In this document: positions 37,135-41,340 of the stretch, one piece after another
Layout of the letters: every line of letters starts with the position of its first letter
Position numbering within the stretch: the first letter of the stretch is position 1
DNA from: Planctomycetota bacterium
Lineage (GTDB): Bacteria; Planctomycetota; SZUA-567; H5-PLA8
Assembly (NCBI GenBank): GCA_038227875.1
Contig: JBBRPR010000038.1
Coordinates: 19,309-83,308, forward strand
Length of the DNA stretch: 64,000 bases
Direction of reading: 5' to 3'
The notes under the pieces: model-generated
What the model saw: the letters and a program-made list of their open reading frames with translations, nothing else
Told to the model about the DNA's origin: nothing
Database searches by the model: none
Program-made: the position numbers and the translations under genes

Positions 37135-37397
37135 AGATTTTCCTCCGAATGAAGCGAGCATTATTTTTCGTGATACAAATATATGCTTTTCTATGATCGT
37201 AATGTCTTGTAATATTACTTTCAACTCTATTGTTTATATTAGTTATTTATATGTTTTACGCGCTGTCTTTCTGGGGATGGGGTCCTTGGCACGGGTTGGA
37301 ACCAATAGATTTTTAGGGCCCGACAGCCCGAACCATCGAACCGCGTCGACTCCCACGCGCTACCGCTATTCCCAAATGTAAATCGGCCAACCTACCG

Positions 37398-37934
37398 GAG
37401 GAACATTGATCTCGCGAAGACAGTCATCGGCTCGCCGTGCCGCACCGCTTGGAAGTTAAGGGCCAAAGGCCCGCCGCTATACCAGCCCAAGGCAACGCCC
37501 TGGTTGCCGTTCATGCCGTTGCCGTTCATGCCGTTGCTGTACATGCCGTTGCTGTACATGCCGTTGCTGTACATGCCGTTGCTGTTCATGCCGTTGCTTG
37601 CCATCGCCTTCAGGCGGTGGTCGCCGTTGATGCTGTTGCTGTCAGCCGGCTTCAGCCGGTCTTTCCGGCCGTTGCTGAGGAACATTGATCTCTCAGCGAT
37701 TGTCATCTCATCGCCGTGCCGCACCGCCTGGAAGTTAAGGGCCAAAGGCCCACCGCTATACCAGCCTGGGGCACCGCCCCAGGAAAAATCACGCCATCAC
37801 CTGAGAGGGCTGTAAGCCCGAACTATCGAACGCAGGCACGCCATTGTTCGGGCTTTCAGCCCTTAACGATAATGGGGACATCCAATTCCTGGGGCGTTGC
37901 CCCAGGCTGATATAGCGGCGGGCCTTTGGCCCTT
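37398..37934. repeat. Composite REP/MITE-like repeat region
   Basis: About 90-bp direct repeats at 37398-37487 and 37677-37766; an ~47-bp inverted pair at 37737-37783 / 37888-37934; an inner inverted pair at about 37806-37822 / 37846-37863. Confidence 0.85.
37503..37598. repeat. 15-bp tandem repeat, about 6.4 copies
   Basis: Unit GTTGC(C/T)GT(T/A)CATGCC. Confidence 0.9.
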
Positions 37935-37990
37935 TGCTCGCTACGCTCGCAACGGCAAACGGTAAAACGGCTAAACAGAAAACGGTAAAA

Positions 37991-39130
37991 CTACGGAGTC
38001 CTGAACGCAGGCACCACCACCACCACCCGAAAACCGAAGTTGTAGCTGCGGTAGTCCGGACCGTTCCCGAAGCGGGAAGCCGACCGACAGTACAAGGGAG
38101 AGTAGCCCCAGGAACCGCCACGCAACAAACGCGCGGCACCGTGATCCGGGCCTTGTGGGTTCTCAGTGGATGACTTCGCGTAATAATTTTCATCCCAAAG
38201 ATCCTGGCACCATTGCCAGACGTTGCCATGCATATCGTACAGTCCGAATTTGTTTGGTTCTTTCTGGCCGACAGGATGCGTTGTATTCTTACTGTTTCCG
38301 TCATACCAGGCAACGCGGCCCAGATCGGCTTCAGCATCGCCGGAATGGTATGCGGTCGTCGTTCCCGCCCGGCAGGAATATTCCCATTCGGCTTCGGTGG
38401 GCAGGCGAACAGTCTGCTTCGTTTGCTCTGTTAACTTCTTGCAGAATACCTGCGTGTCATCCCATGAAACCATTTCAACCGGGTTGTCCTTACCTTTGAA
38501 CTGGCTGGGATTCGTTCCGATCACGGCTTGATAGTGCTCTTGCGTCACGTCGTACTTCCCAATGTAAACCGGCTGAGTCAGCGTTACTGTATGCGCCGGC
38601 TTCTCTCTTTCGTCTGCGCTTTTAAATCGCGCTTCAGCAGCGGTGTATTCCAATCGTGCCGCCTGTAGTCCGTTCGCCGATTGCCTCCAATGCAGCCCGC
38701 TCAGCACGCATCCGCCCGTGGCGACCGTGACCAGCAGCAGCAGGCCCAGCGACACTTGCGGGCGGCGTCGTTTACGGATGGCCTGCACGAGAACGAAGCC
38801 CAACAGGACCAGCAACGCGCCACCGCTTACCGCCAGACCAAACTGCCCTCTTGCAATCTTCTTACTGAATCCGGTTTCATCCACGGGCGTGGGAGGTGGC
38901 GTCCCCATCATGAACTTCCCAGCCGGGATCAGCACCAGTTCGAGCTTCACTCCGTTGCCGAGGTCCAGCGTCTTCGTCGGCGGAAGGTTGACGCGTTTAG
39001 CGTAATCGGCGACGGATTCGTGACCGTCCCAGAGCGGGTATTGTGGCTCGGCGCAGTTAACGATTGAGCAGGCTGCAGCTAGTGCGACGAGAAGCGAAAC
39101 GCAAATGCGAATGGGCAAGGGGTTGCGCAT
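37991..39130 (-). CDS. FGE-sulfatase/C-type-lectin-fold protein with TM hairpin; putative DGR target 1
   Basis: Start at ATG 39130; IPAGKFMMG, RLPTEAEWEY, NKFGLYDMHGNVWQW and RGGSW...CRSA...FGFRV motifs. Confidence 0.9.
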   Translation of the reverse strand: MRNPLPIRICVSLLVALAAACSIVNCAEPQYPLWDGHESVADYAKRVNLPPTKTLDLGNGVKLELVLIPAGKFMMGTPPPTPVDETGFSKKIARGQFGLAVSGGALLVLLGFVLVQAIRKRRRPQVSLGLLLLVTVATGGCVLSGLHWRQSANGLQAARLEYTAAEARFKSADEREKPAHTVTLTQPVYIGKYDVTQEHYQAVIGTNPSQFKGKDNPVEMVSWDDTQVFCKKLTEQTKQTVRLPTEAEWEYSCRAGTTTAYHSGDAEADLGRVAWYDGNSKNTTHPVGQKEPNKFGLYDMHGNVWQWCQDLWDENYYAKSSTENPQGPDHGAARLLRGGSWGYSPLYCRSASRFGNGPDYRSYNFGFRVVVVVPAFRTP

Positions 39131-39132
39131 GG

Positions 39133-40173
39133 TCACGGAGTCCTGAACGCAGGCACCAACACAATCCGAAAACCGATGGAGCCGTAGCGGATGCGTGGAA
39201 CGTACCAGCAGCGGTAAGCCGACCGACAGTACATGGGAGGGCAGAGCCAAGAACCGCCGCGCAACTCACGGATGGCACCATGATCCGGGCCTTGCGGATT
39301 TTCTGCTGGAGATTTGGAGTAGTAGTCTTCACCGTACCAGTCTTGACACCATTGCCACACGTTGCCATGCATGTCGTACAATCCAAATTTATTGGGATCA
39401 TTCTGCCCAACAGGATAAGTTGTGCTCTTGCTGTTCGCGGAGTACCACGCCACGCGATCCAAATCGGAATCCAAGTCGCCGGAATAGAATTCCGTTGTAG
39501 TTCCCGCACGGCACGCGTACTCCCATTCCGCTTCGGTAGGCAATCGCACGCCGTCTTTTGTTTGCTCGGTTACTTTTTTGCAGAACGCCCGCGCATCGTC
39601 CCAGGATACTTGCTCAACGGGGTTATCCTTGCCTATGAAATTACTAGGATTCGTTCCGATCACCGCTTGGTACTGCTCCTGCGTCACGTCGTACTTTCCC
39701 ATATAAAACGGCTGAGTCAGCGTCACCGCATGCGCGGGATGTTCGTTGGGAAAATTGTCTGGATGTTTCAACGCTTCGTTCCAGCGCACGCCGCCCCAGA
39801 CGCCAATGGCCGCTACGAAGGTCATCACCAGCATCAACCCCATGGAGAACTGAGGCCGCTTGTGATTACGCCGGGCGCGGATCAACCAGACCGCCACCAC
39901 GAGAAGAAGTATGCCCCCGCTGATCCCTGTCATCGATTGCCCAACTACAGGTTTTTCGTGCTCCGGCGTCCCCATGACAAACTTCCCAGCCGGGATCAGC
40001 ACCAGTTCAAGCTTCACGCCGTTGCCGAGCTCCAGCGACTTCGCCGGCGGAAGGTTGACGCGTTGGGCGTAGTCGGCGACGGACTCGTGATTATCCCAGA
40101 GCGGGAAGGCTGGCGTGGCCTCAGCGGCCGCCAGCGAACTCGCGAACAAGAAGAGCAGCATCAACAAGCGCAT
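39133..40173 (-). CDS. FGE-sulfatase/C-type-lectin-fold protein with TM hairpin; putative DGR target 2
   Basis: Start at ATG 40173 (signal peptide); same motifs; 24 nt at the 3' end are identical to target 1. Confidence 0.9.
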   Translation of the reverse strand: MRLLMLLFLFASSLAAAEATPAFPLWDNHESVADYAQRVNLPPAKSLELGNGVKLELVLIPAGKFVMGTPEHEKPVVGQSMTGISGGILLLVVAVWLIRARRNHKRPQFSMGLMLVMTFVAAIGVWGGVRWNEALKHPDNFPNEHPAHAVTLTQPFYMGKYDVTQEQYQAVIGTNPSNFIGKDNPVEQVSWDDARAFCKKVTEQTKDGVRLPTEAEWEYACRAGTTTEFYSGDLDSDLDRVAWYSANSKSTTYPVGQNDPNKFGLYDMHGNVWQWCQDWYGEDYYSKSPAENPQGPDHGAIRELRGGSWLCPPMYCRSAYRCWYVPRIRYGSIGFRIVLVPAFRTP

Positions 40174-40299: not shown

Positions 40300-41340
40300 C
40301 TATCGAGCCCCGAACGCGGGCACCAACCTAACCCGCATTCCAAAGAGGTAGTGGCGTTGAACCGGATCGTGTCTCACGCGGCGCGCCGATCGGGAGTCCA
40401 CGGGATTGAGGTTCCAGGAGCCGCCGCGCAATACACGGTAGGCTCCTTCCGCAGGGCCTTGTGGATTCTCATTCGGCAAGTTCGCATAATTTTCTTCCCA
40501 CAGATCCTGACACCATTGCCAGATGTTGCCATGCATATCGTACAACCCGAAATTGTTGGGTTCCTTCTGCCCCACGGGATGCGGGGTGCGCTTGCTGTTC
40601 GCGGCGTACCACGCCACGCGATCCAAATCAGATTCCACATCGCCGGAATAGTATTCAGTCCTCGTTCCCGCGCGGCACGCATACTCCCATTCCGCTTCGG
40701 TGGGCAGACCCACACTCGAATTCGTTTGCTCAGTTACCTTTTTGCAGAACGCCTGAGCATCATCCCACGACACGTTCTCAACAGGTTTGTCCGTGCCCTT
40801 AAAATTGCTGGGATTCGTTCCGATCACCGTTTGGTACTGCTCCTGCGTCACAGCGTACTTCCCCAGATAAAACGGTTGGGTCAGCGTCACCGGACGCGCC
40901 GGATGCTCGGCGGAAAAGTAGTATTGATGTTTCAACGCTTCGTTCCAACGCACCCCGCCCCAGACACCAACCGCCGCCACAAAGGTCATCACCAGCATAA
41001 ACCCCATCGAGAACTGAGGCCGCTTGCGGTGACGCCAAGCGCGGACCAACCACACCGCCACAACGAGTAGAAGTAAGCCCCCGCTAATCCCCGTCATCGT
41101 TTGCCCGACCACAGCCTTTTCAGGCTCGGGCGTCCCCATCACAAACTTCCCCGCCGGAATCAGCACCAGCTCGAGCTTCACGCCGTTGCCGAGGTCGAGC
41201 GTTTTCGTGGGCGGGAGATTTACTTTCTTGGCGTAGTCGGCCACGGACTCCACCCCGTCCCAAAGCGGATAGGCTGGCGCAGCTTCAGACGCGGCCAGCG
41301 ATCCGGCCAGCACGATGACGATGAGCGGCAACGGGCGCAT
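40300..41340 (-). CDS. FGE-sulfatase/C-type-lectin-fold protein with TM hairpin; paralog 3 (more drifted 3' end)
   Basis: Signal peptide; same motifs; ends VPAFGAR; TAGTTTTACCG at the stop, as in target 1. Confidence 0.9.
   Translation of the reverse strand: MRPLPLIVIVLAGSLAASEAAPAYPLWDGVESVADYAKKVNLPPTKTLDLGNGVKLELVLIPAGKFVMGTPEPEKAVVGQTMTGISGGLLLLVVAVWLVRAWRHRKRPQFSMGFMLVMTFVAAVGVWGGVRWNEALKHQYYFSAEHPARPVTLTQPFYLGKYAVTQEQYQTVIGTNPSNFKGTDKPVENVSWDDAQAFCKKVTEQTNSSVGLPTEAEWEYACRAGTRTEYYSGDVESDLDRVAWYAANSKRTPHPVGQKEPNNFGLYDMHGNIWQWCQDLWEENYANLPNENPQGPAEGAYRVLRGGSWNLNPVDSRSARRVRHDPVQRHYLFGMRVRLVPAFGAR

Follow-up and report, generated by a model that had tools for sequence, protein, structure and literature searches.

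The target locus

The window analysed here is a 64,000-nucleotide stretch of contig JBBRPR010000038.1 (C38 below) in a Planctomycetota assembly (GCA_038227875.1, G000 below; 9.34 Mb, 176 contigs, 88% complete). Its open reading frame (ORF) list places three tandem paralogs, g1, g2 and g3, on the minus strand (Table 1), with the stop codon of g2 lying 2 nt before the start of g1. All three match the formylglycine-generating enzyme (FGE)-sulfatase family PF03781 (E values of 4e-44 to 3e-50), and both g1 and g2 carry an FGE-type C-type-lectin domain with a variable region (VR) at its C terminus. As we set out below, g1 and g2 are real targets of a diversity-generating retroelement (DGR), remote from its core. 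In such a system, the reverse transcriptase (RT) copies the RNA of a template repeat (TR), misreading adenines, and the resulting cDNA overwrites the VR. An initial reading of the letters of the window, called the original prediction in the following, had proposed that g1 and g2 were diversified from a single template that is encoded elsewhere and acts in trans.

Codon statistics of the variable regions

Across the 24 codons between TGG (of the motif GSW) and GGT TTT CGG (of GFR), g1 and g2 differ at 22 nt, of which 11 are first, 10 are second and 1 is a third codon position (CCG/CCA). The two genes agree completely, synonymous sites included, in TGT CGG TCG GCT, in both CGC codons and in GGT TTT CGG. 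Upstream, the segment KFGLYDMHGNVWQWCQD holds 7 differences, all synonymous, and the last 24 nt, TGGTGCCTGCGTTCAGGACTCCGT, are common to the two genes. These features had been remarked on in the original prediction, with 21 of the 22 differences assigned to positions 1 and 2, and the codon alignment reproduced every one of them. Over the 150 codons upstream of the VR the two genes differ at 23/150, 17/150 and 76/150 first, second and third positions, compared with 11/24, 10/24 and 1/24 within it. The codon-position pattern is therefore inverted in the VR to a degree beyond chance (Fisher's test, p = 8.5e-6 for position 3 and p = 3.4e-6 for positions 1 and 2 together).

A census of G000 by BLAST, an nhmmer VR profile and a fixed-column scan recovered eight VR copies with one codon framework on five contigs, two each on C38, C135 and C77 and one each on C74 and C24. 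Those on C38 and C135 are clean, and those on C77, C74 and C24 are drifted or broken. Among the four clean VRs, 30 nt vary (17, 11 and 2 by codon position) and 42 are fixed. The fixed sites comprise 23 C, 10 G, 7 T and 2 A, and both A sites vary in other copies, so that in the clean VRs essentially every putative template adenine varies and nothing else does. Pairwise comparison of the clean copies (six pairs) gives third-position differences at 401/900 sites upstream, compared with 8/144 in the VR. This contrast indicates that a common source overwrote the VRs when the paralogs had long since diverged, and non-adenine sites, synonymous ones included, are frozen across paralogs that differ elsewhere at about 45-50% of third positions. 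The third paralog serves as an internal control: compared with the clean four, its third positions differ at 34/96 sites in the VR-equivalent stretch and at 254/596 upstream.

The same signature is seen in 65 full-length homologs from public metagenomes, in which the entropy of the VR columns is 2.5-3.7 bits, against 0.88 for the domain. Residue sets per column are those of N-substituted codons, such as M/L/V (NTG), W/G/R (NGG) and I/V/F/L (NTC); columns of the AAC type hold D/G/N/Y/F/S/C/H, with K, E, Q, M and W rare. Variation in the VRs is confined to adenines, in AAY codons, of a template that is itself reconstructed. The DGR origin of both VRs and their descent from a single template, as originally proposed, are strongly supported by this combination of variable adenine sites and frozen non-adenine sites. 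Read data were examined as Logan contigs of run X1 (0.86 of words), probably from the source sample, and of three other runs; X1 covers VR1 and VR2 with 0 differences, but such contigs lose rare variants, so that this result speaks neither for nor against ongoing diversification.

Putative recognition elements behind the VRs

The VRs end in a 21-nt tail, GTGCCTGCGTTCAGGACTCCG, that resembles an initiation of mutagenic homing (IMH) site. It is exact behind VR1 and VR2, carries 1 mismatch in both C135 copies and 2-3 mismatches in the two C77 copies and the C74 copy, and shows several changes in the C24 copy; apart from these, the genome holds a single match (3 mismatches), which is unrelated. 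The four clean copies have an exact 20-nt tail in common, the 21st base differing in the two from C135. The tails in the window read GGAC, and in all four cassettes of relatives inspected for this feature GGAC in the VR tail corresponds to GCAC in the TR, a difference of the IMH/IMH* kind known from the prototype DGR. We dropped a 4-bp inverted repeat inside the tail (CCTG..CAGG), as it is not kept in relatives.

Behind the tail of VR1 lies a short hairpin element, GCGAGCGTAGCGAGC. With any base allowed at its centre, this 15-mer has four occurrences in the 9.3 Mb, of which one follows VR1, two follow the C135 VRs and the last stands at the extreme end of contig C113. The same sequence, or a compensated form (TCCGCG-N-AGCGGA in G013), stands behind the VRs of relatives, including those beside live cores. 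On the structure that we named, 75% of cells pair and none of 500 shuffles was as high; one pair changes from C-G to T-A, and a tandem G.A/A.G in one group is replaced by C-G/C-G in another. No pairs were predicted by RNAalifold for the stretches that follow the VRs. The element is missing behind VR2, since g1 begins 2 nt after the g2 stop.

Guo et al. (2011, PMC3240598) showed that BPP-1 requires a GC-rich hairpin of the GRNA-loop type behind the VR, and describe stems of 7-10 bp and spacings of 4-34 bp. The element in the window is likewise a GC-rich hairpin with a loop of the G-N-A type; it differs in its shorter stem, tandem G.A mismatches, 3-nt loop and spacing of about 45 nt, and in standing behind VR1 and not behind VR2.

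The 765-nt spacer behind g1 (window 37392-37990) is made up of dispersed short repeats that recur at up to 19 places in the genome, and also contains a 15-nt tandem array, GTTGCTGTACATGCC, of 6.4 copies (37503-37598). It looks like filler of the repetitive extragenic palindrome or miniature inverted-repeat transposable element (REP/MITE) type.

A graded series of target copies

The four drifted or broken copies are damaged in different ways. C77_4820 has an internal deletion that leaves 169 aa, the C74 copy is a frameshifted fragment ended by the contig end, and the C24 copy has lost its stop codon. Each of these three, and C77_4311 as well, shows 3-6 departures from the framework at non-adenine sites. 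For the third paralog of the window the figure is 8 of the 42 fixed sites, with both adenine sites counted in. The clean four show 0 departures at these sites, a zero that is partly by construction since the sites were defined by these four. Their single third-position departure from the NNC layout is a GAT in C135_4743 (1/88 sites), which we estimate to correspond to roughly 5% neutral divergence at most since they were last written. Given that the damaged copies depart from the framework and the clean four do not, homing outlasted the loss of the damaged copies, and the clean four VRs were written recently. Outside the VRs, the membrane regions of g1 and C135_4743 are nearly identical.

The assembly breaks repeatedly within this family. 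The end of C113 (13321-13329 region) is the hairpin element that follows a VR, the end of C130 (7689-8033) falls inside the N-terminal 115 residues of a paralog, and of the five VR loci, four are less than 5 kb from the end of their contig. From the breaks in C113 and C130 it follows that at least one further target gene is unassembled. Elsewhere in the assembly, C23 and C120 begin with pure hexamer tandem repeats (TGCAAC and AACGGG), which are probably assembly ends inside microsatellites.

Intact cassettes in relatives

Complete versions of the system are found in related genomes of the same family and phylum. On G013:C572, an RT is followed directly after its stop codon by a TR (starting TGG AAC AAC AAC CCG AAC AAC TGC CGT), and three VRs differ from this TR only at adenines. 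At least three RT copies with TRs are present in G011, on contigs of less than 3 to about 6.6 kb, and in-frame stops interrupt two of these copies. The interrupted RTs (L074 on C1027, 1 TGA and 2 TAA; L076 on C569, 1 TGA) adjoin their TRs and VRs and are either decaying cores or assembly errors. On G137:C86 the order is target with VR, hairpin element, avd (115 aa; bAvd 73.7 bits) and RT; no TR was found there by motif, and the cassette runs off the contig. The same cassette also occurs in G052, G055 and two IMG/VR records. The latter (L097 and L098, filed as viral) are complete, with a VR, TR, avd-like stretch and RT in this order, and their viral label may rest on the RT alone. The intact cassettes have in common a GNLTSQ RT, an AAC-rich TR with the codon layout of the window, avd, the GGAC/GCAC tail difference and the hairpin.

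The template originally reconstructed for the window holds in its codon layout, which matches that of real TRs in relatives. The relatives' TRs differ from the window framework at synonymous sites (TGC CGT TCC GCG against TGT CGG TCG GCT), so none of them is the cognate template. Two loci of one JGI metagenome (L039 and L040) have exactly the framework and tail of the window on gene bodies only about 75% identical to the G000 paralogs, which shows that the same template family is kept across species; the low identity led us to reject them as orthologs for dating the VRs. In a sample of the family, VR-like copies occur in 8 of 16 genomes, three of which (G007, G011 and G013) have a GNLTSQ RT. 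In the remaining five of the eight (G003, G008, G009, G010 and G015; metagenome-assembled genomes (MAGs) 86-91% complete) searches found no DGR RT. The tallies of VR copies include G017, on which no claim rests.

Searches for a core in the assembly

According to the original prediction, a template copy should stand beside a DGR-class RT and Avd elsewhere in the genome. The searches of G000 turned up no such locus, a truncated avd on C135 being the only trace. The RT family RVT_1 gives 2 hits in G000, both RTs of type XIII retrons and the only RTs in the assembly; a DGR RT ([LIV]GxxxSQ) is absent. The retrons lie on C83 (L009 1285-3587) and C4 (L010 1249-3570), with RT_XIII matches at E ~2e-160 and an adjacent SWIM_XIII match at E 6e-45. 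A query with P0001, the bona fide DGR RT of G013 (motif IGNLTSQ), reached a best E value of 0.42, on C68, which we dismissed as noise. A profile of eight DGR RTs, run against all six-frame ORFs of at least 30 aa, hit only a retron RT. For the window itself the earlier negative was confirmed, as C38 has no RVT_1 hit, and nhmmer and the fixed-column scan find no TR in the window.

Searches for the template across G000 were equally negative. The VR profile in nhmmer returned the VRs and distant paralogs and no A-rich copy, and the fixed-column scan, in which a true template would approach 47/47 A, peaked at 15/47 variable columns in a distant paralog on C84. A generic TR-end motif at up to 2 mismatches gave 0 hits, and no 30-codon window holds more than 8 in-frame AAY codons, barring two simple repeats. 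Beyond G000, exact framework scans returned only VRs, with 1 hit among GTDB species genomes, 4 in JGI metagenomes and 0 in IMG/VR, as did a scan of 401 sampled genomes of the phylum at up to 2 mismatches.

No intact avd stands beside an RT in G000, the sole copy being the truncated one at C135:4406-4618. The match of this stretch to bAvd (PF22296) spans profile positions 6-76 of 107 (E 1.1e-8; 36 bits, cut-off 40). No other bAvd-like match in G000 has an E value below 0.001, the two others standing at 0.009 and 0.36. The stretch shows 36% identity to the Avd of G137 (115 aa) over residues 5-76 of the latter and, by tblastx, 45-50% identity to the avd genes that adjoin the RTs in G013, in G055 and in an IMG/VR cassette. 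Avd homology stops near C135:4405, and searches with the VR and DGR-RT profiles found no RT or TR behind it; a lax tblastn of the RT against C135 gave chance matches only. Instead, the tRNA-Thr(CGT) fragment, a multicopy insertion sequence (IS) end and an IS21-family gene pair follow (Table 1). The whole stretch (C135 232-3829, L120) is a junkyard of mobile elements that also contains two unknown ORFs. Since the remnant matches the avd-RT part of intact relatives in position and order, we read C135 as the site that the core, or one core, once occupied, presumably the core that wrote the VRs in the window. PF05635 Avd-like genes on C9 and C10 were rejected as DGR parts, with no RT near and housekeeping neighbours (murB/ddl-like and biotin/fatty-acid genes, from a reading of the translations).

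Table 1. Features of the target locus in the window and of the truncated avd locus on C135
Feature	Position	Strand	Evidence or remark
g1, DGR target gene 1, 379 aa	37991-39130	minus	ORF; PF03781 E 3.6e-49; codon alignment
VR1, 24 variable codons of g1	38036-38107	minus	between TGG 38108-38110 and GGT TTT CGG 38027-38035
IMH-like 3' tail of VR1, GTGCCTGCGTTCAGGACTCCG	37994-38014	minus	exact in VR2; 1-3 mismatches in five other tails
Hairpin element GCGAGCGTAGCGAGC	37936-37950	minus	15-mer, ~45 nt behind VR1 tail
g2, DGR target gene 2, 346 aa	39133-40173	minus	ORF; PF03781 E 2.8e-50; architecture as g1
VR2, 24 variable codons of g2	39175-39246	minus	codon alignment
IMH-like 3' tail of VR2, same as VR1 tail	39136-39156	minus	no hairpin element after it
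Two-helix membrane hairpin, g2 residues 75-135	39769-39951	minus	AlphaFold2 helices 75-103 and 111-135
g3, intact paralog, former target, 346 aa	40300-41340	minus	ORF; PF03781; 8 departures at 42 fixed sites
VR-equivalent of g3, drifted	40342-40413	minus	codon and tail alignment; NNC layout retained, tail degenerate
avd-like ORF	C135:4648-4214	minus	first ~80 residues Avd-like; directly behind second C135 target and hairpin
tRNA-Thr(CGT) 3' part with flank, 71-nt copy	C135:3760-3829		~580 nt from avd remnant
Multicopy IS end, 117 nt	C135:3584-3701		97-98% identical to nine contig ends
IS21-family istA/istB pair	C135		behind tRNA-Thr fragment and IS end

Architecture of the target proteins

The closest solved structure to g2 is TvpA, the DGR variable protein of Treponema denticola (PDB 2y3c; E 4.8e-38), with true FGEs ranking behind it (E 1e-26), and the C terminus of g2, VR2 included, aligns to the C-terminal variable stretch of TvpA. 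In g1, g2 and g3 a signal peptide is followed by the first FGE strands, two hydrophobic helices and the remaining FGE domain. The helices, joined in g2 by a short Arg/Lys-rich loop, form a membrane hairpin inserted after the first strands of the domain, and the Pfam match begins at profile position 20, past this insertion. An AlphaFold2 model of g2 from a 65-row alignment is poor (mean predicted local distance difference test score, pLDDT, of 60; C-terminal half below 50), with the hairpin as its sole confident part (ten-residue block means of ~81-86 over residues 81-130). The architecture suggests that g1 and g2 are lectin-like ectodomains anchored in the cytoplasmic membrane by the helical hairpin.

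In all three proteins, this hairpin opens with PVV, followed by a helix and an Arg cluster, and in g2 it matches the PVV-CTERM sorting-signal model NF051874 below threshold (23.6 bits; cut-off 27), in the middle of the protein although PVV-CTERM is a C-terminal type of sorting signal. Residues C311 and C316 of g2 align to both Cys of the bacterial FGEs 6muj and 2q17, the active-site pair of catalytic FGEs. The pair is not conserved among the 65 homologs: column 311 is hypervariable (Y13 D12 G7 ... C2), and only C316 is retained, in 62 of 65.

Comparison with known systems

DGR targets that are multiple or remote from their core are already established, and the window is a further case. For Treponema, Wu et al. 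(PMC5758913) describe seven non-adjacent targets, and for Stenotrophomonas eight in tandem. Like the window family, the Treponema system combines an FGE-type C-type-lectin fold, as in TvpA, with a C-terminal VR and many non-adjacent targets of one core. It differs from the window family, which has no assembled core, whose proteins have a signal peptide and, within the FGE domain, a membrane hairpin, and which comprises eight copies on five contigs, four of them decayed. In Thiohalocapsa PB-PSB1, as reported in PMC10907252, transposon-shaped, incomplete DGR loci have targets diversified in trans. Incomplete loci, candidate remote targets, transposons and FGE-type C-type-lectin targets are common to both systems; in Thiohalocapsa, however, the RTs and TRs lie elsewhere in the genome and diversification is seen in metagenomes, neither of which is shown for G000.

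With the prototype BPP-1 (mtd-avd-TR-brt) the window has adenine-specific variation and a conserved 3' tail of the VR in common, as well as the hairpin compared above. In contrast to its gene order, one cassette of a relative reads target-avd-RT, and the TR follows directly after the RT in G013 and G011; the window system is moreover chromosomal and multi-target, not a phage tail fibre. There is also a close likeness to the cassettes on G013:C572, in G011 and on G137:C86, which have the same target family, TR codon layout, RT, avd, tail difference and downstream element. The window family has some traits of its own, namely the membrane hairpin inserted in the FGE domain, its 15-nt element, the tail with GGAC/GCAC and a series of decaying copies alongside a truncated core. 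Among the matching DGR papers listed, none has the word "orphan" in its title or in the opening of its abstract, and only PMC4372165 contains it (2 occurrences).

Orphaned targets or a live remote core

We propose that the VRs in the window are recently orphaned, their last writing having shortly preceded the loss of the core, after which they would have stayed frozen. To this reading we give an even chance of being correct. One template of about 24 AAY-rich codons would have written at least eight paralogous targets on five contigs, with mutagenised cDNA overwriting the VR of every gene that has the recognition tail (IMH) at its 3' end, and the membrane-anchored proteins would expose a TvpA-like C-type-lectin pocket lined by the VR. 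In the assembled genome the core would be dead, its avd truncated and its RT and TR replaced by the tRNA-Thr fragment, the IS end and the IS21 transposase. In favour of orphaning, the 9.3 Mb yielded a single trace of a core, and that trace is truncated. Because the clean VRs are pristine, such a loss, if real, must be very recent; both this recency and the way in which the proteins are used are inferred.

Several observations weigh against the orphaning of the targets. The clean VRs, their genes and their tails are intact, just as an active core would leave them, with third-position departures at no more than 1/88 sites. The assembly is 88% complete and breaks inside the target family (C113, C130 and C74), so that a second core could lie beside an unassembled target, and several cores per genome do occur, as the RT copies of G011 illustrate. 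No TR with the framework of the window was found anywhere searched, leaving the template a reconstruction, and nothing shows directly that the remnant on C135, rather than another core, wrote the VRs in the window.

These points lead to the alternative that the targets are live, served in trans by an intact avd-RT-TR core in the unassembled or unbinned 12% of the genome, with the avd on C135 as an extra, dead copy. We consider this a serious possibility, if somewhat short of an even chance. Four targets are intact without framework drift, and the copies lacking a tail have drifted at 3-8 sites, so that homing outlasted them. The contig breaks in the family and the closeness of most VR loci to contig ends fit a core missing from the assembly, and the small contigs that hold the cassettes of G011, a genome with several cores, show that such loci assemble poorly. 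Action in trans on remote targets is documented in PMC5758913 and PMC10907252. Against a live core stand the absence of any DGR-type RT or TR fragment from the 9.34 Mb in the RT, VR-profile, motif and AAY-density searches, the truncation of the only avd present, and the exact-pattern scans of GTDB, JGI and IMG/VR, which yielded VRs only. Of the proposal that the template acts in trans, the remoteness of the targets from the core stands, whereas a live template is not borne out, with neither a TR nor a DGR RT in the assembly. The fallback of the original prediction, that the targets are orphaned, is at least as likely as a live remote core.

It is improbable that the core resides on a mobile element that comes and goes, such that the targets of several Planctomycetota genera are rewritten only while it is resident and the avd on C135 is the scar of its departure. 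Equally hard to credit is the general form of this idea, in which the core sits on a separate integrative element, plasmid or phage and serves chromosomal targets when present. The avd remnant does lie close to a tRNA-Thr 3' fragment, of the kind left at integration sites, and beside IS sequences, five of the eight VR-bearing genomes of the family yielded no DGR RT, and two IMG/VR records carry a cassette of the same clade. However, scans of viral contigs for the framework and tail gave 0 hits, the intact cassettes of relatives adjoin their own targets, and the MAGs without an RT are explained as easily by incompleteness.

We give almost no credence to an origin without any DGR, through diversifying selection on the binding pocket combined with gene conversion: paralogs do swap segments (as in the membrane regions of g1 and C135_4743) and lectin pockets are often under positive selection, but selection cannot hold C/T third positions in 17 variable codons while positions 1 and 2 are free, nor freeze the synonymous sites of interspersed codons, and the residue spectra across the 65 homologs fit N-substitution of template adenines, with relatives showing the same layout alongside real TRs and RTs.

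Implications for DGR targets in Planctomycetota

The locus shows that DGR targets can be recognised from the VR alone, by frozen third positions, an NNC spectrum, the tail and the hairpin. Surveys of DGRs set out from the RT, and the largest of them, by Roux et al. (PMC8144416), reports being unable to detect remote targets. Within one genome, G000 offers a graded series that runs from four pristine copies through four that are drifting or broken to one paralog abandoned long ago, together with a truncated core, which would allow the fate of hypervariable genes after homing stops, and the role of tail integrity in it, to be measured. The findings also add to the Planctomycetota a widespread and unnamed family of variable lectins that are TvpA-like and anchored in the membrane.

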